Assembly (NCBI GenBank): GCA_965205675.1
Contig: OZ242186.1
Span: 416,001-480,000 of the forward strand
From: Nitrosopumilus sp.
GTDB taxonomy: Archaea > Thermoproteota > Nitrososphaeria > Nitrososphaerales > Nitrosopumilaceae
Length of the DNA: 64,000 bases
Reading direction: 5' to 3'
Below the pieces are notes generated by a model, which saw only the letters and a program-made list of their open reading frames with translations, did no database searches and was not told where the DNA came from. Positions 22,907-61,901 of the stretch are shown piece after piece (the stretch's first letter is position 1; each line of letters starts with the position of its first letter). The translations under genes and the position numbers were made by a program.

Positions 22907-23377
22907 ATAGAAATTAAATAAATCGACTATATCAATAAAGCTAATTCAAACAATCAGTTTATGGGATTTATTAACTAAATATTGGGTTTTAGGCTCATAG
23001 ATTAGCGGTTCTTTTGGTTCAATGATTATAAGCAGTTTTTATGCATAAAATAGGATCTATTGAATTCTTAATTATGTCGTAACAGATTAATGAAATATTA
23101 GGGATTTACAAAATTTCAAATAAAAGAAGTTTAGATAAATTTATGATTAATTTTTTGTTTTTTCTTGAACCCTGATATATTCTTCTAAGAAATCATGATT
23201 CTGACAGCCTAGGATAATTTTTCAATTTCAGTAGATGGGAAAGTATTTAATTCGGATCATAAAATAACAATCATTTCCTCAAATTATTCAGATAGAAAAA
23301 GCTTGATGAATGTGTCCAATTCCGGCTTCCTAGAAATCATCAACGAAACAAACAGAAATCAAACACATTCTGTGACA

Positions 23378-23472
23378 ATTCCAAGTCAACAATCGATAGA
23401 GTAACTCAATACACTGCCATGAATATGTCTGGAGAAGGATACATTCCAAGTCAACAATCGATAGAGTAACTC
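23378..23472. repeat. 30-bp direct repeat separated by 35-bp unique insert
   Basis: ATTCCAAGTCAACAATCGATAGAGTAACTC at 23378-23407 and 23443-23472. Confidence 0.9.
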
Positions 23473-23734
23473 TCTTGTTTTTATGGCACCATTATATGAT
23501 TTGATTTCAGAATCAAACCTTCTTTTTACTTCAGAAAATATTCTCACAGTTTTATTCTGTTCATGGTACAATGTTTCTTCATCAAATTCATTTCTTATCT
23601 GTTTTCTATACTTGTCATGTGTATCTAAAATTGAATTGTCTCCTCTAACTGGAATTCTTGAGAGAATATTCTCATATCTCTAATTTGCTTATGAATTGAT
23701 TCTGTATTGTTGTATCCCAAAATCAGTTCGTCCC

Positions 23735-24470
23735 TTATTTGACATCGTATTCTTCTCCTGTCTGCTCATCAATAACTCTTGTTCCTTTCTCTGGCATCTT
23801 TCTTGCATATGCCTTTACAGGGGTCTCAAGATTATCCCAGTCAAGTGACATGTGTGGCTTTATGTGGTTGTACCAGTGGACCAGCTCATCAATGGTGCCA
23901 AACCATTTCTGCTTTCTCTGAATCTCGCCGTGAAATCTTTCGAGCTTGCCATTGGTTTGAGGATGGTTCACTCTTGCCATGATGCGTTTTATTCCAAGTC
24001 TAACCAGTTCTTGCTCAAACTGTGATGCTCCTTTTCTCTTGTATTCTGATTGGTTTGCATAAAATTGGGAGCCATGATCAGTTAGAATTGATGCAGGCCT
24101 ACCGTGCTTTGCAATTGCCTCATGTAATACTACAAGTGCGTTATCTGTTGTTGCCTCTGCAAACACTCCATGAGAAACGATAAACCTTGATGCGTCATCC
24201 TGGTAACACAGAAACCATCTGCCATCGTCTAACTGCTTCCAGTCAGTATGCCACATGGAGTTTGAATATGTCCTTTCATATCTAACCCACTTTCGCCTTC
24301 TCCTCTTCTTTGGCTGATCTTCTGCCAACCCCTCATCTCTCATAATTTTGTGTATGGTATTGTGAGGTATGTGTGTTCCAGTGGTATCAATTATTTTCTC
24401 CAGGAATACTGCAGAACACCTGAACTTTTCAAATGTAGACTGGACAGTCTGTACCATCTGCTCTGTAATT
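23735..24470 (-). pseudogene. IS481 transposase, C-terminal integrase-core part
   Basis: WHTDWK, LTDHGSQF, PQTNGKLERF. Confidence 0.88.
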
Positions 24471-24519
24471 ATCCATGTGAATTGTTTTTATACATTTCCT
24501 CTCTTTCCATACATCAGGG

Positions 24520-24680
24520 CATGGCTTTCGCTAGAGAATGGTTTCAATCAAAAGATGGCAGACATGTATCCATACGAGACTATTCTCTCAATGCTATCTT
24601 CATCCTAGTTAGGATTGTTCGCAGTTATTAGACGAGGCCTTGTCCCTCAATAATTACAACGCGACTTGCAGTCCTAACTA
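24520..24680 (-). ncRNA. Putative bridge/seek RNA of IS110-B (ends approximate)
   Basis: Scaffold shared with IS110-A RNA; loop TGTAATTAT equals target flank 24464-24472; second loop ATGGATA equals element end. Confidence 0.75.
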
Positions 24681-25787
24681 TAATTTTGTACAAATTCTCT
24701 CCTCTCCTTTAACATCCAATAAATCACCCTCAGGATCTTTGATGCACCAGCTACTGCAGCTTTGGATGATCCTCTTTTCTTTTTAATGCGATTGTAAAAT
24801 TTTGTAATGTCACTATCCTTGGCATGAATTGCATGAGTGTGTATGCATTCTGTTAGAACCCATCTCAATGTCATGCTTCCCCTTTTTGTTATTCTGCCAT
24901 GGTGTATTGTATCTGCAGAGTTTCTAACTGATGGTACAACTCCTGCATATGCACACAGTTTGTGAGAATCATTGAATCTCTCAATATCTGCAATCTCTGA
25001 TGCAATGACAAGCGAAGAATAATGCCCAATTCCCGGAATCGAGTTTATCAAAATTGCATCAGGATTAACTTTTACAGCAGCATACACTTTGGAATTAATC
25101 TCTGCAATCTGTAAATTAAGGTGGCTGATTTGTTGCAAGAATCCGTCTATTCTGTAATCTCCTAGTGCCTTGAGTCTTCTGTTGTATGTTTCAGTGAATG
25201 TAACTCCTGGAATCCTGATTCCTTCCTGTAACAATATTCCATGAACTGAATTCTTGACAGATGTTCTCCATTGGATTAGTTTTTTCCTATATCTTACAAG
25301 CTGTCTTTGTTGTACAATCTTTTTGTCTGGAACATAACATGTGGCAATGTATCCTCCTCGTAAAAGATCTGCCAATATCTTGGCATCAATCTTGTCTGTT
25401 TTCTTTTTTGATGTAGCAATTGCCTTTGTCAAATATGGGTTTGAGAGTGTGACGTTTTTGTATCCCAAAGTATCTGTGAGAAATCGATACGTGTCATACC
25501 AGACTGATGAGGATTCCATTACAATATTTGCAGAAATTGGTATTTTTGCAAAATGCTTTTTGATGGATTCATGAGTGTTATCCACTTTGTCATTTTGTAA
25601 TACTTTGCCTGCATCATCCATTTATTACTTGAAGAAACTTCTTGTGCAGGTCAATGCCCACAAACATGCCTTTCTTTGGATTTTTTCTAATCTGTTTGTT
25701 TGTAATCTTTTTTGGAGCCGAGTATTTACGAACCTTGGAACTAGATTCATTTTTTATGCTATCTGATTTCCTTGCTTTCTTATTCAC
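24674..25787 (-). pseudogene. IS110-B recombinase, frameshifted near 25625
   Basis: GIDLHK in one frame, then VMESS, KTDKIDA, SIPGIG, YAGVVPSVRNSA in another. Confidence 0.85.
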
Positions 25788-25859
25788 ATATCCATGTGAA
25801 TCCCTTTTAACTATTGTCGGTATTTTTGCCATATTAATTACAGCTTACGCTAATACACT

Positions 25860-26008
25860 CATACTTTCAATCACAGATGAAACCAGACACATATCCATTC
25901 GGGGTTCTCCCCCAGTACCATCTTCATCCATTTATTAGGTGAAACCGCGGTTATAGTTTCGAGGTATTATGCATCCTCAATGTGAAAACGCGGCCAAACT
26001 CCTAACTG
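25860..26008 (-). ncRNA. Putative bridge/seek RNA of IS110-A (ends approximate)
   Basis: Guides TTTTCACAT and AAACTAT match flanks TATTCACAT and TAACTAT; donor loop ATGGATAT. Confidence 0.75.
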
Positions 26009-26022
26009 TAATGTTTTACAAA

Positions 26023-26700
26023 TTATTGATGACATTGAACAAATTCTCTCCTCTCTTTTAGCATCCAATATATGACACGCAATAACTTTGATGCAGCAGC
26101 AACTGCTGCCTTTGAGGTCCCTCTCTTTTTCTTAATGCGATTATAAAATTTTGTAATGTTGCTATCTGGTGCGTATCTAACATGTGCATGAATTGCCTCC
26201 ACTAGCAACCATCTTAGCATGGTGCTTCCTCTCTTTGTAATTCTTCCGTGATGTATTGTATCTGCAGAATTTCTCACCGATGGAACAATCCCTGCATATG
26301 CACATAACTTGTGAGAATTTGAAAATCTACTAATCTCTGCAATTTCTGAGAATATGCTCAATGCAGTGTATGGTCCAACTCCAGGTGTGGATATCAAAAT
26401 ACACACACCAGGATTATCATTTACCATGCGACGTATCATGGAATCTATCTTTGCAACCTCCTTTTTGTGAAATTTTATGCTTTGTAGGTACGAATCTATT
26501 CTATAACTCTCCAATTTTCCAAGTGCACGTATGTGTTCTGAGGAAAATGGTGTTGCTTTGATATGGATTCCCTCCTGTAGTGTAATACCATGTATGGAAT
26601 TCTTCATCTTTACAATAATGCGTATAATCTTGTGTCGATGTCTTACAAGCTGTCTGTATTGCACAATTGTGTGATCTGGCACAAATGATTCTGCAATGTA
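26023..26700 (-). pseudogene. IS110-A recombinase, C-terminal part
   Basis: STPGVG, YAGIVPSVRNSA; joins in frame to the N-terminal part (RGGY|IAESFVP). Confidence 0.88.
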
Positions 26701-27798
26701 TACTCTCTAACAAAATTTTATGATCTGTTGATCTGATTTATTTTACCAAATGCCATATTGATCAAAACATTACACATCAAACCATGAATAATCAAAAATT
26801 AATTCAAGCATACAAAGATGAAAAGAACGTCAAGGTAAAAGAAAGGCTATTTTTGATAAAGCGAGTATTACTTGAGAACCAAATTGCATCACATGTTGCA
26901 AAGAATCTTGGACGTGTACGTTCATGGGCATACAAATGGTTAGATAGATTTGCAGAATATGGAATTGCAGGACTGCAAGACTTGCCTAGAACTGGCAGAC
27001 CAACTAGTATACCAAAAAAGAAACTAGTCAGCATTCAACTACAAATTGCAGAAAAACAATCCGGCTGGAGTGCAAAGCAAGTGATGAATCTGATTTATCA
27101 AAAATCAGGTGTAAAATATCATGAGGTTCATGTGTACAGATTATTACACAAATGGGGATTTGTTCCAAAGGTTGCAGCAAAGAGATTTGTAAATTCAGCT
27201 AGTGTTGAGGAAAAACTCTGGTTTAAAAAAACTCCAAAGAACAAATAGCCTCAAAAATAGCAAAAGGCTTTACAGTTCTTGCACAAGATGAGTCCATCTT
27301 TACTGCTGATGCGATATTTAGAAAAAAGATGTGGGTAAAGAAAGGAACCCGTCCAATTATTCTAGTAAACGGGTCACATCAAAAAACAATCATTTTTGGT
27401 GCACTGACTCATGACGGCAGGCAATTATTCAGACAATATGAAAAATTTGATCAGTACTGTTTTTTGGATTATCTAAAGGAATTGCACAGAAAGTTTGGCA
27501 AGATTCTAGTCTATGTAGACCGAGCACCACAACACAGATCAAAACTAGTACAAAAATATCTTGATGAGAATGCAGATGATGTTCTATTGAATTGGTTTCC
27601 AAAAGGCTCACCACAGCTCAATGCAGTTGAGGAAGTATGGAAGCAAGGAAAATACAATTTGTTGGTGTCACAGTATCAACCATCTCTAAGTAATCTGAAA
27701 AATAACATCTCCAAATATTACAGAACCAGACGATTCAATTTAGACATTCTCAAGTATATGCAACGAGAGGATGGTTGACGAACTTATGTTAGGAAGTA
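26701..27798 (+). mobile_element. IS630-family element
   Basis: TA target duplication at 26699-700 and 27799-800; TIR TACTCTCTAACA / TGTTAGGAAGTA. Confidence 0.92.
26784..27778 (+). CDS. IS630 transposase (orfA HTH 26784-27248 + orfB DDE, joined by frameshift at TTTAAAAAAA ~27222-27231)
   Basis: GLQDLPRTGRP; QDES, VDRAPQH, SPQLNAVEEVW. Confidence 0.88.
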
Positions 27799-28214
27799 TA
27801 TCCTCCTCGTAGCAAATTTGCAAGATGGTACGCATCAATTTTATCAGTCTTTTTGAGTGATGATGCTATTATCTTTGTGTTGTATGGATTAGATAGTATA
27901 ACATCAAGATGTAATTTGTCTGTCATGTGTCTATAAAGGCCATACCAGACAGATGATGACTCTAAAACATATTTTGCGTTCTTTGGAATTTTGGATGTAA
28001 TTTTGCTAATAGCAGAAAAATCACTGGAAATCTTTTTGTTAAATAATAATTTGCCAATCTCATCTACTGCTGCCACCTGTACAGAGTTCTTGTGAACATC
28101 CAATCCTACAAACATCAAATATTTTTTTTCAGGAAGGGTAGTGTGTTTGTTTGCATTTCTTACTTTCTTGATACGAATGCAAGTACCATCTAATTTCCTA
28201 GCTGATTTTGGCAC
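27799..28214 (-). pseudogene. IS110-A recombinase, N-terminal DEDD RuvC part
   Basis: GLDVHK, VLESS, KTDKIDA. Confidence 0.88.
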
Positions 28215-28228
28215 ATATGGTTATAGTT

Positions 28229-28410
28229 ATTCCCTTTGGCCTTCCAGGCTTGCCTAGAATCGGAATTGCACCAGTACGGCGATACCGTGAGTAGAGTTTC
28301 TGCACCCACCGAACAGATATCTTCATGGATGAGGCTACGTCTGCGTTCTTGGCACCATCCTCTTTTGACTTGATTATCCAGAATATCTGGATTGGATCTA
28401 ACTTTTGCAT
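28229..28410 (-). pseudogene. IS481 transposase, N-terminal HTH part
   Basis: NADVASSMKISVRWVQKL..KPGRPKGI, in frame with ITEQMVQ after removing IS110s. Confidence 0.85.
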
Positions 28411-28802
28411 AATCTTGTGATTCTTTCCTCTTTTCCAAACGTATCTTGACTTTAGTCTGGAAATGATGGGGTGAACTAATTTGAGGATAATAGAATTGTA
28501 TTCGTTGGAGTAACATCATACATTTGAGAGAATGATTTTGGGAAAATGTTTTATGATGTCATGAGATACGAGATGATGGTGCTGAATCACAACTGCACAA
28601 ATCAACTGGGATTTCATATCAAAATCTACTGACATTTTTGTAAATGCGTGCCCGAGATTGCATCTGCAAGAATAGTATGGTGTATAGCAGCAACTGTCTG
28701 TTTTTAAATTTTGTTGCATCTACTCCTGCAAATATTGCATCCGAAGATATTATTCCAATAAATCTACTAATTGCAACATTATCCAATTACAACTCAAAAC
28801 TA

Positions 28803-28928
28803 TACTCAATAACAAAAATTCGTCACCCTATTCTAAACTCGATTTACGTACATTGTAGATTCAAGTTTAAATTTCAAGAATTAGCATAATTTGGAAGATT
28901 TTGGGTCATGAATATTTGTTAGACAGTA
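28803..28928. mobile_element. 126-bp IS630-type MITE, copy 1
   Basis: Nearly identical to 39988-40113; TIR TACTCAATAACAAAAATTC / GAATATTTGTTAGACAGTA. Confidence 0.85.
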
Positions 28929-29436
28929 TCTCCTATTTTACAACACTTCAAAAGATAGCAGCAGTTAGATTAAGTGACATTTTCCTGTGTGATTTCTGTT
29001 GCCACATCTAACCATTCAACAAAACTCTCATAACTTTTGACTCGTACTGCCTAAGGACTAGCGGTATGTTGTGTGTTGGTGTATTGAAAATGTATATTCT
29101 GATTTGGAATGCAAAAACAGTGGAACATTGATTTTCTTTAGAATATACAGCAGCAGGAGGGAAATCATGCGTTGGTATTTGTTTTTCATAGAATAAAATG
29201 ATTATCAATAATTGATGATTAGTTTGATGTATGATTAGGTAAAATATTGATGATTTCTAGAAAGCCTAAAAAATAAAGTTATTTTTAATTGAAATGTAAG
29301 CTACAAAGTTATAATTGGGATGATGAAAATATTTCAATTGTCAAATCAAATATGCAAAATTTTTAGGAATTGTAAATTTGTATTTAATCTTTGACCAAAG
29401 TTTAATATACAGAGTTTTGATTTTACCGATCGAACT

Positions 29437-31554
29437 ATGGCTACTGTTAAGAAAATTTTTGAAGAAATTATTCAAACCGATCATAAAGTTATCACTGAAG
29501 AATCGTCAAAATCTATCCTCAAAACTTATGGCGTTAAAGTTCCTTCTTATGCACTTGCCACTTCTGCAGATGATGCAGTAAAGCAAGCAAAGAAAATGGG
29601 TTTTCCTCTTGTCATGAAAATTGTATCTCCACAAATTTTACACAAAACTGATGTTGGTGGAGTTAAAGTTGGAATTGATAATGTCAGTGATGTAAAAAAG
29701 ACATTCAATGATATGCATGGTCGTCTTTCTAAAAAGAAAGGTGTTGAAGTTAAAGGAATTCTTTTAGAAAAGATGGTTCCAAAAGGTGTTGAACTAATTG
29801 TAGGTATTCAAAATGATCCACAATTTGGTCCAATGATTATGGTTGGATTGGGTGGAGTAATGACTGAAGTTTTCAAAGATGTTTCATTTAGAATGTTACC
29901 TATTACAACTTCTGATGCAAAATCAATGTTAAATGAACTCAAAGGTTCCAAACTTCTCAAAGGGTTCAGAGGAAGTATCCCTATTGATCTTAACATGGTA
30001 GCAAAAATGTTAGTTCAAATTGGAAAATTAGGCGTAGAAAATGCAGATTATATTAATAGTATTGATTTTAATCCTGTGGTCGTTTACTCAAAATCATATT
30101 TCGTAGTTGATGCAAAAATCATTCTAAATAATCAATTAAAGGAAAATTCTATCTCAAAAACAAAACCTATCATTACTTCAATGGAGTCGTTCTTTACTCC
30201 CAAATCTGTTGCACTAGTTGGTGCATCTGCAACTCCTGGCAAAATTGGTAATTCTGTATTAGATGCACTTGGAAAACAAGATTACAAAGGTAAAGTATAT
30301 CCAATTAATCCTAAACAAAAATCAATTCTTGGTATCAAATGTTATCCATCATTAGATGCAATAACTAAAAAAGTTGATCTGGTTGTTGTTTGTATTGATC
30401 TTTCATTATGTGGACCAATAATGAAGACTTGTGCCAAAAAAGGCATTTACAATGTTGTAATTGTTTCGGGTGGTGGTAAAGAGCTTGGTGGTGATCGAGC
30501 CGCAATGGAAGCTGAAGTAAAAGAATTATCTCTAAAACACAAAATTCGTGTAATTGGTCCTAATTGTATTGGAATGTTTAACGCAGCAAATAGACTTGAT
30601 TGTGCATTCCAAGGACAAGAAAGAATGGTACGTTCAAAATTAGGCAATGTTGCATTCTTCTCACAAAGTGGAACTATGGGAATTAGTATGTTAGAAAGTG
30701 CTGATTTATTTGGTTTATCAAAAATGATTAGTTTTGGTAATCGTTCTGATGTTGATGAAGCAGATATGATATGGTATGCTGCAAATGATCCTCAAACTAA
30801 GGTAATCGGATTATATGTTGAAGGGTTTGGTGATGGCAGGAAATTCATCAATACTGCAAAACGTGTAATGAAAGAAAAAAAGAAACCTATCGTTATTTGG
30901 AAGAGTGGTAGAACTACTGCAGGGGCAAAACAAGCTGCATCACACACTGGCTCACTTGGAGGCTCGAATGCAATGATTATGGGTGCATTCAAACAAGCAG
31001 GAATTATTTCAGTTGACAGTTATCAAGAACTAGTTGGAGTCTTAAAGGCACTAGCCTGGCAACCTCCTGCAAAAGGCAATCGTGTTGCAATGACTAGTAA
31101 TGGTGCAGGTCCAATGATTGGCGGAATTGATCAATTAGAAAGATTGGGTCTTACAATAGGAGAATTGTCTCCATCGATACTCAAAAAAATAAAATCTCGT
31201 TTTCCACCTACTGTTCCCATTCATAATGGTAATCCAGCAGATGTTGGTGGTGGTGCAACTGCAGATGATTATCGATTTGTCATTCAACAATTCATAGATG
31301 AAAAAAATATTGATATTGCCATGCCATGGTTTGTTTTCCAAGATGATCCGCTTGAAGAAACCATTGTAGGTTATCTTGCAAATCTCTCAAAGAAAAAGAA
31401 GAAGCCTATTTTGGCTGGTGGTAATGGTGGTCCATATACTGAAAAAATGATAAAATTGATTGAAAAACACAATGTTCCAGTTTATCAAGATCTTCGAACT
31501 TGGGTTGCAGCAGCATCTGCATTGGCTCAATGGGGCAAAATACGCGGAAAATAG
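29437..31554 (+). CDS. 3-hydroxypropionyl-CoA synthetase (ADP-forming), HP/HB cycle
   Basis: ATP-grasp N-terminus (HKTDVGGV) + CoA-binding (GPNCIG, SHTGSL); adjacent crotonase as in Nmar_1309/1308. Confidence 0.85.
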
Positions 31555-59006: not shown

Positions 59007-60368
59007 CTATCCAAATAGAGCGTCAATCTCTTTGTTATTCATTAGTCTCTTTGAAATTACTATCTCTCTGATAGTTTTTCCAGTTTTTAATGATTCTTTG
59101 AAAAATTCTGCAGATTTTAGATATCCGATTCTTGGAGTTAACAATGTGACAATTACTGGGCTGTTCTCAATATCTGCACGTAGTTTGTTTTTGTTAGCTG
59201 TTAACCCATCAATTAGATTTGCAGAAAATATTGGTAAGAAATTTTTAATCATATCTGTTGACTCTAACATACACTTTAGCATTCCTGGAAGCATGACGTT
59301 TAATTCAAACTGTCCACCTTGTGCCGCATAAGACACTGCTGTATCATTTCCAATTATGTTAAAACAAATCATGTTCATGCATTCAGCTAAAGATGGGTTT
59401 ATTTTTCCAGGCATGATTGATGAGCCTGCATGCACTGCAGGAATTCCTAATTCTGCCAATCCTGCAATTGGTCCTGATGCCATCAATCTAATGTCATTGG
59501 CAATTTTTCCTATTTCTAATGCCAAATTTCGTAATGCACTTGATAAATTTACAATTGCAAATTTACTTTGTAAACTATGCTGCATGTCTTTTTCCAGTTT
59601 TAGTGATAATTTTGAAATCTTTCCTAGTTCTGATACTGCAATCTTTCTGTAACCTTTTGGAGTATTAGCTCCTGTACCTACAGCTGTTCCTCCCAATGCG
59701 ACATATTGTAATTCTTTTTGTGCATCTGTGATTTCTCTCCTTGCTTTTGTCAGTGATGTTACATATGCGTCAAATTCACTACCCAATGTAACTGGTAATG
59801 CATCCATGAGATGGGTTCTCCCTATTTTCTTAAATGATGAAAATTGTTTTGCTTTTTTGGATAATGATTTTATCAAAATATCTATTGCAGGAATTGTCTC
59901 TTTTAGATTCATCAAAATTGCAACATGCATGGCAGTGGGATATGTGTCATTGCTTGATTGTGACATATTGACATGATCATTTGGGTGTAAGAATTCGTAT
60001 TGTCCTTTCTTTTTGTGAAGTACTTCTAATGCCACATTGGAAATAACTTCATTAGAATTCATGTTAAAAGCAGTACCTGCTCCAGAATTTATCATATCTA
60101 CAACAAATTGATCAGTATATTTTCCTGACAATATCTTGTCACATGCTGAAACAATTGCTTTTCCACGTTTTGCATCGATAGCTTTTGTCTTCATATTTGC
60201 AACTGCTGCTGAGCGTTTTATCATTACAAACGACTTTATCAAATTCTCGTGACTTTTGTTGCCTGTTACGTGATATTGTTTGATGGCTCTTCCTGTGAAT
60301 GCCCCATAATATGCATCAGATGGGATTTTGACTTTTCCAAGTGAATCTTGATCTAATCTAAATTTCAT
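59007..60368 (-). CDS. Class II fumarase / aspartate ammonia-lyase family
   Basis: HPNDHVNMSQSSND, GSSIMPGKINP. Confidence 0.92.
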   Translation of the reverse strand: MKFRLDQDSLGKVKIPSDAYYGAFTGRAIKQYHVTGNKSHENLIKSFVMIKRSAAVANMKTKAIDAKRGKAIVSACDKILSGKYTDQFVVDMINSGAGTAFNMNSNEVISNVALEVLHKKKGQYEFLHPNDHVNMSQSSNDTYPTAMHVAILMNLKETIPAIDILIKSLSKKAKQFSSFKKIGRTHLMDALPVTLGSEFDAYVTSLTKARREITDAQKELQYVALGGTAVGTGANTPKGYRKIAVSELGKISKLSLKLEKDMQHSLQSKFAIVNLSSALRNLALEIGKIANDIRLMASGPIAGLAELGIPAVHAGSSIMPGKINPSLAECMNMICFNIIGNDTAVSYAAQGGQFELNVMLPGMLKCMLESTDMIKNFLPIFSANLIDGLTANKNKLRADIENSPVIVTLLTPRIGYLKSAEFFKESLKTGKTIREIVISKRLMNNKEIDALFG

Positions 60369-60479
60369 GTTATCTCTACTCTATTTCCCCCCATTATTCA
60401 TTCTTTTATTGATAAGAACATTTTGACACATTCAATAAAAAGGGGAATTATTATATAGGAATTGTAAGGTCGTTGGGTT

Positions 60480-61901
60480 ATGAATAAGCGTGTTAGTATG
60501 CTCTTTACAATTACAGCAGTAGCTGTAATGGGAGCAACCTTATTCGGAAGCACATACACACAAACCCAGATTACTGGACAATCACTTGACATTACAAAAA
60601 TGGATGCCGATGTAATTGAACAAATCCATCAAATGGGTGGTTTACAGCTTGTAATGCCTCAAGCATTCGCAGAAACTGATTGTGGTGTACTTGAATCTTC
60701 TGGACGCACTGTCGTCGAGTTTGATTTGACTGGTGAAAGTGTTGAACTCCCAATTATGGGAGGGAAAACTTACAATGCCATGACCTTTAGTGGACAAGTC
60801 CCAGGACCAACACTAAGAGTCACACAAGGCGATGTTGTAAAAATGACACTTACAATTCCAGATGATGAAGTTACTGGACACGGTAATGACATGCATGCAT
60901 CACAATTGTCCTCAAGCAATTTTGAATCCGTTAATCCGGGTGAAACAAGTCAATATTGTTACATTGCTGAATCTGCTGGTGTTTTCAAATACCACTGTTC
61001 TGGTGTCAAACTAATTGGTATGGACCAACACGTTCTTTCCGGCATGTACGGAATTGCAATCGTTGATCCTATCAATGGCTATAAGAAACTCATGGTAGAG
61101 AAAACTTCAGTTAGTGGCGGCGAAGTTTCATTAGATAGGATGTTCTACGATGCAGATGCATTAGAGTTCCAACTCCAATACAATCAATTGTATTTGAATG
61201 ATGATGGCAATTATGATGCAACAGCAATGTTCCAACATCATAACACTGCAACAGTTGTTAATGGGATGCAATTTGGTTATGTACCAAACATGGCCCATAA
61301 TTTACTCGTCAATGGCGATGTAAACAGGAACATCTTTGTTGCACAACCATGGAATGGAATTGAACACAAACAATACCAATCACAACTCTTGTTTGTTGAA
61401 AATGATCAACATGTCAGACTCTTTGTTGAAAACCACGGTAACGAACCAGTATTTTTCCACATTGTTGGAGAAATTTTAGATAGAGTTACTCAAGGTAACA
61501 GAGTACAATCCGCAGCAACTGAAACATGGTTACTCGGAGGTTCACAAAACATGATTGTTGACTTGGTCTTTGATGAACCAGGTGCATATGCAGCAGTAAA
61601 CCATGATTATGCAGCAATTTACACTGGCGCTGCTACAGTATTTGTAGCAGGTGACCCATTCGGCTTGAACTCTGTTCTAGTTGAAAAAGGAGTTATCCCA
61701 GCACCAGTGCCATCTTATGCATATGCTTTAGGTAATCCAAGTGATGCTGTCCCACCAATGGGAATGAACAGTATTGCTCATCCTGCCCAAAACATTCACG
61801 GTTTAATGACTGATGATGTAGCTTCTGAAATGCAAGCAAGTGGCGATTATCTTGCATTATGGGAAATAATTCCTGTAGTGGCAGAAATCCTTACTTCTTG
61901 A
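60480..61901 (+). CDS. nirK: Copper-containing nitrite reductase (archaeal NirK)
   Basis: HGNDMH, YHC, HVLSGM, FHIVG, NH copper ligands. Confidence 0.92.
   Translation: MNKRVSMLFTITAVAVMGATLFGSTYTQTQITGQSLDITKMDADVIEQIHQMGGLQLVMPQAFAETDCGVLESSGRTVVEFDLTGESVELPIMGGKTYNAMTFSGQVPGPTLRVTQGDVVKMTLTIPDDEVTGHGNDMHASQLSSSNFESVNPGETSQYCYIAESAGVFKYHCSGVKLIGMDQHVLSGMYGIAIVDPINGYKKLMVEKTSVSGGEVSLDRMFYDADALEFQLQYNQLYLNDDGNYDATAMFQHHNTATVVNGMQFGYVPNMAHNLLVNGDVNRNIFVAQPWNGIEHKQYQSQLLFVENDQHVRLFVENHGNEPVFFHIVGEILDRVTQGNRVQSAATETWLLGGSQNMIVDLVFDEPGAYAAVNHDYAAIYTGAATVFVAGDPFGLNSVLVEKGVIPAPVPSYAYALGNPSDAVPPMGMNSIAHPAQNIHGLMTDDVASEMQASGDYLALWEIIPVVAEILTS

Follow-up and report, generated by a model that had tools for sequence, protein, structure and literature searches.

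The question raised by this locus is why one insertion sequence (IS) of the IS110 family should lie inside the extreme end of another. The window, a 64,000-nucleotide stretch (C1:416001-480000) of a 2.01-Mb single-contig archaeal genome of Nitrosopumilus sp. (G000, archaeal small- and large-subunit rRNA present), contains two such siblings, here called A and B, within a nested stack of mobile elements. A sequence-only reading had proposed that A is guided by its RNA into the terminus of its sibling, and the core of that interpretation is supported by recurrence at 13 of 13 sites and by loop/flank matches in four element families. A is very probably an IS1111-type IS110 element whose guide carries a first loop written for the 5' terminus of siblings. 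Element domains were assigned using Pfam and the boundaries of copies by BLAST against the genome; coordinates without a prefix are those of the window, and the features of the two siblings are as follows.

24473-25791, minus strand: body of B, an IS110/IS1111-type element (Pfam DEDD_Tnp_IS110 and Transposase_20), with ends defined from empty paralogous sites.
24473-24482, minus strand: 3' subterminal repeat of B, ATTCACATGG.
25618-25631, minus strand: frameshift in B, a 2-nt deletion (from open reading frame status).
25785-25787, minus strand: GTG start codon of B.
28225-28230, minus strand: displaced 5' tip of B, with AG at 28225-28226 (CT in the sense reading) followed by TTAT; solo B copies end in ...CACATATAGTTAT.
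25792-28224, minus strand: A, an IS110/IS1111-type element (Pfam), head-to-tail in the 5' tip of B; nine copies have identical junctions.
28212-28214 and 26023-26025, minus strand: GTG start codon and stop codon of A.
28214 to 27789 and 26682 to 26023, minus strand: the A gene, in two pieces.

On the plus strand, the 5' part of B closes with ...CTTATTCACATAT (25779-25791), A runs from CCATGTG (25792) to ...CACATATGGTTAT (28224), and beyond A are AG (28225-28226), TTAT (28227-28230) and then IS481 sequence beginning TCCC. Solo copies of B close with ...TTCACATATAGTTAT on this strand, and all seven matches to that 15-mer (with at most one mismatch) are B ends, so that A separates the CACATAT of B from its AG. 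The 3 nt TAT (25789-25791, identical to 28222-28224) leave the junction ambiguous, and not 2 nt as had been supposed. Only AG is unambiguously B sequence beyond A; TTAT is a 4-nt overlap of the B end with B's own target, because both the empty paralogous sites and contigs from four public runs (four studies), which join 24468 to 28227 in an uninterrupted IS481-like element, show that overlap. Apart from these details the earlier description of the junctions is confirmed. A is positioned 2 nt plus the crossover inside the B 5' end, a few bases upstream of the B GTG, which agrees with the earlier proposal that its target covers the subterminal repeat and start-codon region of B. B and A together occupy exactly one B-type site, and the junctions indicate that A interrupts B and not the reverse, since the outer flanks of the composite are the two halves of the B target and the CT tip of B lies beyond A. 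An A/T-rich box in the A 3' end would be 6 nt closer to the B GTG than at the predicted circle junction; a promoter was considered here, and we make no such claim.

The arrangement recurs throughout the genome, which has nine A copies with complete ends, namely eight uninterrupted ones and the split copy of the window. In the sense reading, all nine copies with a complete 3' end read ...GGGATTCACATGG-ATA-TGTGAATAA..., entering a sibling 5' end that lacks its first bases, and the sibling tip is kept on the other side of A as ATAACT or TAACC. The siblings are five full-length B elements, three B fragments (117, 178 and 251 bp, from no fewer than two B lineages besides; the one at 570k is followed by an unrelated multi-copy repeat), and one 5' end of the type found in a third family, C, which has four full copies (178k, 482k, 1157k and 1402k). 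In 151 genomes of the genus, a search with the A 3' loop strand plus its stem yields 13 sites in three genomes, all 13 followed by a sibling 5' end: nine in this genome, three in genome G145 and one in genome G157. Every one of these A-type guide carriers is head-to-tail in the sibling, with a single nucleotide position and a single orientation among them. A test set in advance, for A copies with the same guides at unrelated sites, finds none among the 13; the flank in one contig of run X6 is not recognized.

The predicted guide RNA is encoded in the 3' non-coding region (NCR) of each element, where alignment of A and B reveals conserved stems and variable loop strands:

25943-26006, minus strand: predicted target-binding module of A, with the 5' arm of the outer stem at 25999-26006 and the inner stem at 25989-25995 and 25943-25948.
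25949-25988, minus strand: loop of that module, with 5' strand TTTTCACATT (25979-25988), hairpin (25961-25978) and 3' strand AAACTATAACC (25949-25959).
25876-25928, minus strand: predicted donor-binding module of A, with 5' strand GATGAAGATGGTACT (25914-25928), hairpin (25901-25913) and 3' strand GAATGGATATGTGTCTGGTTTCATC (25876-25900).
24554-24659, minus strand: predicted guide modules of B, with target loop strands TTGTAATTATT (24649-24659) and TCTAATAACT (24623-24632), hairpin (24634-24648) and donor module (24554-24604).

The first A loop has strands TTTTCACATT and AAACTATAACC, which correspond to both strands of the 5' tip of the sibling. Within the 5' strand (UUUUCACAUU), TTCACAT is the bottom strand of the sibling subterminal repeat; within the 3' strand (AAACUAUAACC), AACTATA is the top strand of the sibling terminal extension plus the crossover, and is followed by A's own CC, so that AACTATAACC is exactly the left junction after insertion of A. 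The loops of the other families correspond in the same manner to different sequences. The first strand of the B loop, TTGTAATTATT, has an 11-nt identity to the bottom strand of an empty B site (equalled in 2 of 2000 shuffles), and the second, TCTAATAACT, is the left flank, the core and the first bases of B; the loops of C (TTAAACATATT and TTTTGTAACT) and of an element in genome G018 (TGCTCTGATT and TTCATCTAAAT) match their own, differing flanks. A matrix of loops against targets is diagonal-dominant for the four families, with the best pairing for each being its own target, and random loops of the same composition match the A target with at least 7 and at least 7 nt in 29 of 200,000 draws.

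The fold is conserved as three helices in six sequences: none of the 84 cells is unpaired, against at most 52.4% of cells pairing in a slid-partner control, and 7 of the 14 pairs show compensatory changes; an alifold consensus was also obtained. The second internal loop includes GATGG in A and GATAG in B, tracking the ends CCATATG and CTATATG, and also contains ATGGATA, the common 3' end; we take it to be the donor loop. The loop arrangement of seekRNAs and bridge RNAs, with both target strands and the donor ends represented, is thus found computationally, and the fold is kept.

The other genomes supply a natural exchange of modules. The three G145 elements are mosaics in which a 5' end, gene and target loop 98% identical to those of A (with an intact A-type reading frame of 365 aa) are combined with a donor loop and 3' end of C type; all three run directly into a B-type 5' end, belonging to a full B in two cases and to a fragment in one. 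C elements with the C-type target loop are not in B ends. The insertion site follows the target loop and not the donor loop or 3' end, because the G145 mosaics sit in B ends in spite of their C-type donor loop and 3' end. The G157 element is 88% identical to A with an internal deletion, is the only copy in its genome, and goes straight into the 5' end of a C-like sibling with a TAACT scar on the other side; its loop strands are TATTCACATT and AAACTATAACC, and its match to the target is longer (TATTCACAT). The 19-nt tandem junction occurs once among 185,579 species genomes, in this same Nitrosopumilus metagenome-assembled genome (L019, i.e. G041/G157). A DNA search of 41 relatives with the A NCR gives matches in only three genomes including the window's own, and the contigs of genome G015 break inside the element and have flanks that are not sibling ends. 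Five metagenome contigs matching the tandem-junction 19-mer were discarded, as none (0/5) has A or B homology and the 19-mer is a near-palindrome matched by chance. A contig of run X5 (at window position 25800), from a different organism, has a B 5' end and CCATGTGA running into C-type 3' sequence (ATCTTTAAAAACATTTGCAC...), that is, a sibling with a C-like 3' region in a B end, like the G145 mosaics. Among the matches listed, no contig spans the B-A junction with 31 nt on both sides; the four public runs were compared as contigs, in which rare circle junctions are not visible, and no RNA run is listed for the stretch.

B has a target of its own. Ten full copies at 99% identity or more are identified by BLAST, and comparison of occupied with unoccupied copies defines the target as T[GA]TAAT-TA-TT with the 4-nt overlap TTAT, present at all ten. 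Empty sites are found in an IS1595-like element (L001, Pfam DDE_Tnp_IS1595) as ...AATTTTATGTAATTATTGGAAAAAAC... and in an IS5-like remnant (L002) as ...CAATTGTAATTATTGGATTT...; an empty site first guessed as TRTAATTATAGTTAT has no match, and the true ones came from flanking paralogues. Both contexts contain the series empty, B only, and B plus A, and A alone is never seen there. Seven intact B ends lack A. An intact 371-aa B protein is present elsewhere, and a young B lineage has two intact open frames of 373 aa (371 aa from the GTG). The 11-nt guide match of B, TGTAATTATTG, is not confined to IS481: IS1595-like and IS5-like elements and unique DNA contain it too, and B occupies these sites as well. 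The suggestion that B targets IS481 is correct in that IS481 is among its hosts, but is too narrow; the B guide is not written for IS481 as such, and the short motif it matches is shared by other sites. In the IS1595-like element the B target lies at the TTG start codon (L001 2466-2520, C1:1994465-1994520; copies at 203k, 999k and 1108k), and we note that insertion of B there and of A into B alike cut a transposase gene off from its upstream sequence.

The classification of A and B follows from their anatomy. B contains both PF01548 (E value 3.8e-19) and PF02371 (E value 3.5e-21), the same domains occur in A's two halves, and the proteins share 60% identity over 240 aligned aa. The non-coding region after the stop codon is 231 nt in A (from the stop at 26023 to the end at 25792) and 201 nt in B, and only about 10 nt precede the start codon in either. 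B has 8-bp subterminal repeats (ATGTGAAT and ATTCACAT) with the extensions TAACTAT on the left (the TA core counted left) and GGA on the right, the 7/3-bp pattern of IS1111; the A subterminal repeat is weaker (ATGTG). In the accessible text of PMC11187229, the IS1111 group is described as having a downstream NCR, subterminal repeats with 7/3-bp extensions, and a guide in which the top-strand complement lies 5' of the bottom-strand match. All of the group features examined, namely the domains, downstream NCR, subterminal repeats and extensions, and site- and orientation-specific insertion, are present, as is insertion with no true target duplication for both A and B. A search of 23000-29500 against Rfam (E of 1 or less) identifies no matching family, only two sub-threshold chance matches (a long non-coding RNA and U6), which has no bearing on function.

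A simple scheme would account for these features. A has a DEDD recombinase gene followed by the 3' NCR encoding a putative bridge/seek-type guide RNA, which is presumably made and would guide the recombinase. The abutted ends of an A circle would read ...CACATGGA-TA-ACCATATG..., the A-type target site would resemble AACTATATGTGAA, and recombination at TA within ...AACTA|TA|TGTGAAT... would insert A 4 nt within the sibling in head-to-tail orientation, upstream of the sibling GTG by a few bases, and leave the last bases of the sibling on the far side of A. A crossover at TA would fit the junctions of all four families. In the window, B would have entered an IS481-like element, followed by A, and later by an IS630-like element into A. 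The sibling would lose its exact 5' donor end; the B-A composite, with outer ends still resembling those of B, could itself move, and tandem siblings could recombine into mosaics. What is observed directly is the anatomy, its recurrence, the agreement of loops with flanks in four families, and a fold that is conserved; parasitism and donor-end disruption are reasonable readings of that anatomy.

Several points weigh against guided targeting of sibling ends, or limit it. No A transposase gene in this genome is intact, so A could not move autonomously here now. The longest-match test over the whole A NCR is not significant, both 7-mers being found in 291 of 2000 shuffles of this AT-rich DNA, and the argument for a guide is for that reason built on loop position and between-family comparison. 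The case for bridge/seekRNA guidance is computational throughout. In the run X6 contig an A-like 3' end lies beside a flank not identifiable as a sibling end. Lastly, the five full tandem B parts share six single-nucleotide polymorphisms (SNPs) absent from the five solo B copies, and the five full B-A tandems are consequently not independent insertions. As to the contig itself (at window position 25788; 293 nt, from another organism), its A-like 3' end has one mismatch in 198 nt, and its flank, ...TTCATAATATTCAGT, resembles a sibling tip with an indel.

The shared SNPs lead to the alternative that survives best, in which A made only one or a few entries into a sibling end and most B-A loci are a moved composite or duplicated or recombined blocks. 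This we consider possible though unlikely. The five tandem B parts share the frameshift as well as the six SNPs relative to the five solo copies, three tandems share IS481 flanks, and the composite outer 5' end, CTATAAC, keeps 5 nt of the B sequence CTATATG; at the 996k locus, chimeric flanks (IS1595-like on the left and IS481 on the right) point to recombination between copies. However, A is also in three other B lineages, a C-type end and two further genomes, and the window A belongs to a different lineage from that at 928k (about 13 differences) even though their B parts differ at only two sites. A history in which older B was saturated by A, A then died, and a young B lineage spread explains the SNP split equally well. 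Comparison of the phylogenies of the A and B halves of the tandems offers too few sites to separate composite movement from separate entries. RNA-guided targeting could hold under this alternative too, which concerns only the number of events.

A very improbable alternative is that the tandems arose by 'half-match' recombination at donor ends, with an A circle joining a sibling 5' end through the donor loop and independently of the target loop. The A and B 5' ends are indeed alike (ACCATATGTG and ACTATATGTG), some A copies have extra GGTTAT units next to them that suggest insertion of A into A, and preprints, in their accessible parts, report tandem IS110 modules with one-sided donor matches (10.64898/2026.08.14.744561; 10.64898/2026.08.31.748434). 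Core-to-core exchange predicts ...CACATGG-ATAA-CTATATGTG with B intact, however, whereas the observed sequence is ...CACATGG-ATA-TGTGAAT with the B CT moved to the far side of A; both strands of the first loop match and not one half, and the G145 mosaics, whose donor loop and end are C-type, are nonetheless in B ends, whereas C elements bearing the target loop of their own family are found at other sites. Donor-donor recombination, a test set in advance, is thus disfavoured, the crossover lying inside B (ACTA|TA|TGTG) and not at the B junction core. That insertions are untargeted and survive only inside other ISs by selection has next to no chance of being correct, for although the genome is packed with ISs and B too lies in other ISs, all 13 junctions are at one nucleotide and in one orientation, and selection for harmless sites gives no single-base precision.

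Guided insertion of A into sibling ends thus being the preferred reading, a broader idea can be put forward tentatively, and we think it doubtful as a whole: a guide-encoded food chain of mobile elements in an archaeon of ammonia-oxidising type, in which the A target loop, whose probable origin is recognition of A's own similar end, has been turned on sibling donor termini. A would land directly upstream of sibling start codons and take away the exact 5' end, disabling rivals while exploiting them as harmless landing pads, and the tandem pairs would act as a workshop that reshuffles loop modules into mosaics such as the G145 element and the hybrid at 755k. If true, this would be a natural route to new bridge-RNA specificities.

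The A genes of this genome are broken at one spot (CGAGGAGG|ATAC), with +1 G in seven copies (including the 755k hybrid) and two different -2 variants in two copies; the window A has no frameshift, but it is at this spot that the IS630-like element has inserted, and the intact form is in G145. The 755k hybrid (C1:754374-755692, L004; also at 60278-61238) joins, within the conserved C-terminal region, the 5' 1,097 nt of A to a 3' part that is B-like (87%); an ATAACT scar lies 5' of it and its 3' flank is B-type, the leftover expected of homologous recombination within an A/B-like tandem. A deletion at the 39k locus (C1:38834-40889, compared with paralogues at 497305-497908 and 1789290-1789893) has removed B from nt 118 through to the 3' end, with an endpoint near the B crossover; A and the 117 bp of B that are left occupy a B-type site, intact in other respects, within a repeated element. 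The extra GGTTAT units are beside the A 5' end (GGTTAT-GGTTAT-AGTTAT and similar) at 63659, 566147, 571883, 953074 and 1407694, and are consistent with A entering the similar end of another A followed by loss of one copy. The C copy at C1:482761-484654 adjoins the terminal TA of an IS630-like element (...TTATGTTAGAGAG-TA-ACCATATG...). The genome is unusually rich in ISs, A and B flanks match repeat families of 10 to 30 or more copies, and chimeric flanks at several loci point to recombination between IS copies.

The remaining members of the stack complete the map. The window has a G+C content of 33.9%, and on the minus-strand reading from 28495 to 23707 the four elements are nested as IS481-like, B, A and IS630-like, from the outside inwards.

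23707-28495, minus strand: IS481-like element, the outermost host, interrupted by B and A (Pfam rve and helix-turn-helix [HTH]; boundaries from BLAST of other copies).
24457 to 23735 and 28410 to 28231, minus strand: rve and HTH parts of the IS481-like element, respectively (Pfam).
26702-27801, plus strand: IS630-like element in the A transposase gene, with a TA duplication (Pfam DDE_3 and HTH; about nine near-identical copies).

The IS630-like element is 1,100 bp long, and contigs of three public runs lack it, joining 26698 to 27799.

Bridge/seekRNA recombinases are under development as programmable genome-writing tools, and to our knowledge the natural evolution and aims of their guides are mostly unknown. 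The siblings described here, in a few related genomes and three of them in this one, have target loops and insertion sites that differ in step, and the natural chimera separating target from donor loop is a ready-made specificity experiment. That an RNA-guided element should be aimed at the termini of its relatives is relevant to conflict between mobile elements and their hitch-hiking, to the way in which stacks of nested ISs accumulate in small archaeal genomes, and to the exchange of guide modules between tandem siblings.

Partridge and Hall in 2003 reportedly described IS4321 and IS5075 as targeting the inverted repeats at the ends of transposons belonging to the Tn21 family. These elements resemble A in being IS1111-type, with subterminal repeats and a fixed target that is the terminus of another mobile element entered in a single orientation; an IS1111-type element so aimed is thus already known. 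They differ in that the target here is the terminus of an IS110/IS1111-type sibling resembling A's own end and not of an unrelated Tn3-family transposon, that the host is archaeal, and that the siblings have readable guide loops that can be set against one another. ISEc11, ISKpn4, ISPst6 and ISPa11, as described in the accessible text of PMC11187229, share the DEDD transposase, the NCR 3' of tnp, the repeats with 7-bp/3-bp extensions, the loop order of a short RNA, and natural reprogramming between relatives, but their targets are a linear site, attC sites or REP (repetitive extragenic palindromic) sequences, and that text mentions no sibling IS end as a target. The IS621 bridge RNA, as far as the accessible text of PMC11208160 extends, similarly has two internal loops, each around a central hairpin, one for the target and one for the donor, with a dinucleotide core and 'handshake' bases that span the junction, but lies in the left end upstream of the gene with the loop-strand order reversed. 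Tandem IS110 loci in the accessible part of a preprint (10.64898/2026.08.14.744561) also form head-to-tail arrays by insertion into occupied loci, but these are copies of one element with one-sided donor matches, whereas two siblings and both target-loop strands are involved here. We found no described IS110/IS1111 element with a target loop for a sibling end in the literature, although the supplementary tables of PMC11187229 and PMC11208160 may list such elements. What is new here is a target that is the terminus of siblings belonging to the same family, loops that can be read against the siblings' flanks, a natural loop chimera, and an archaeal host.

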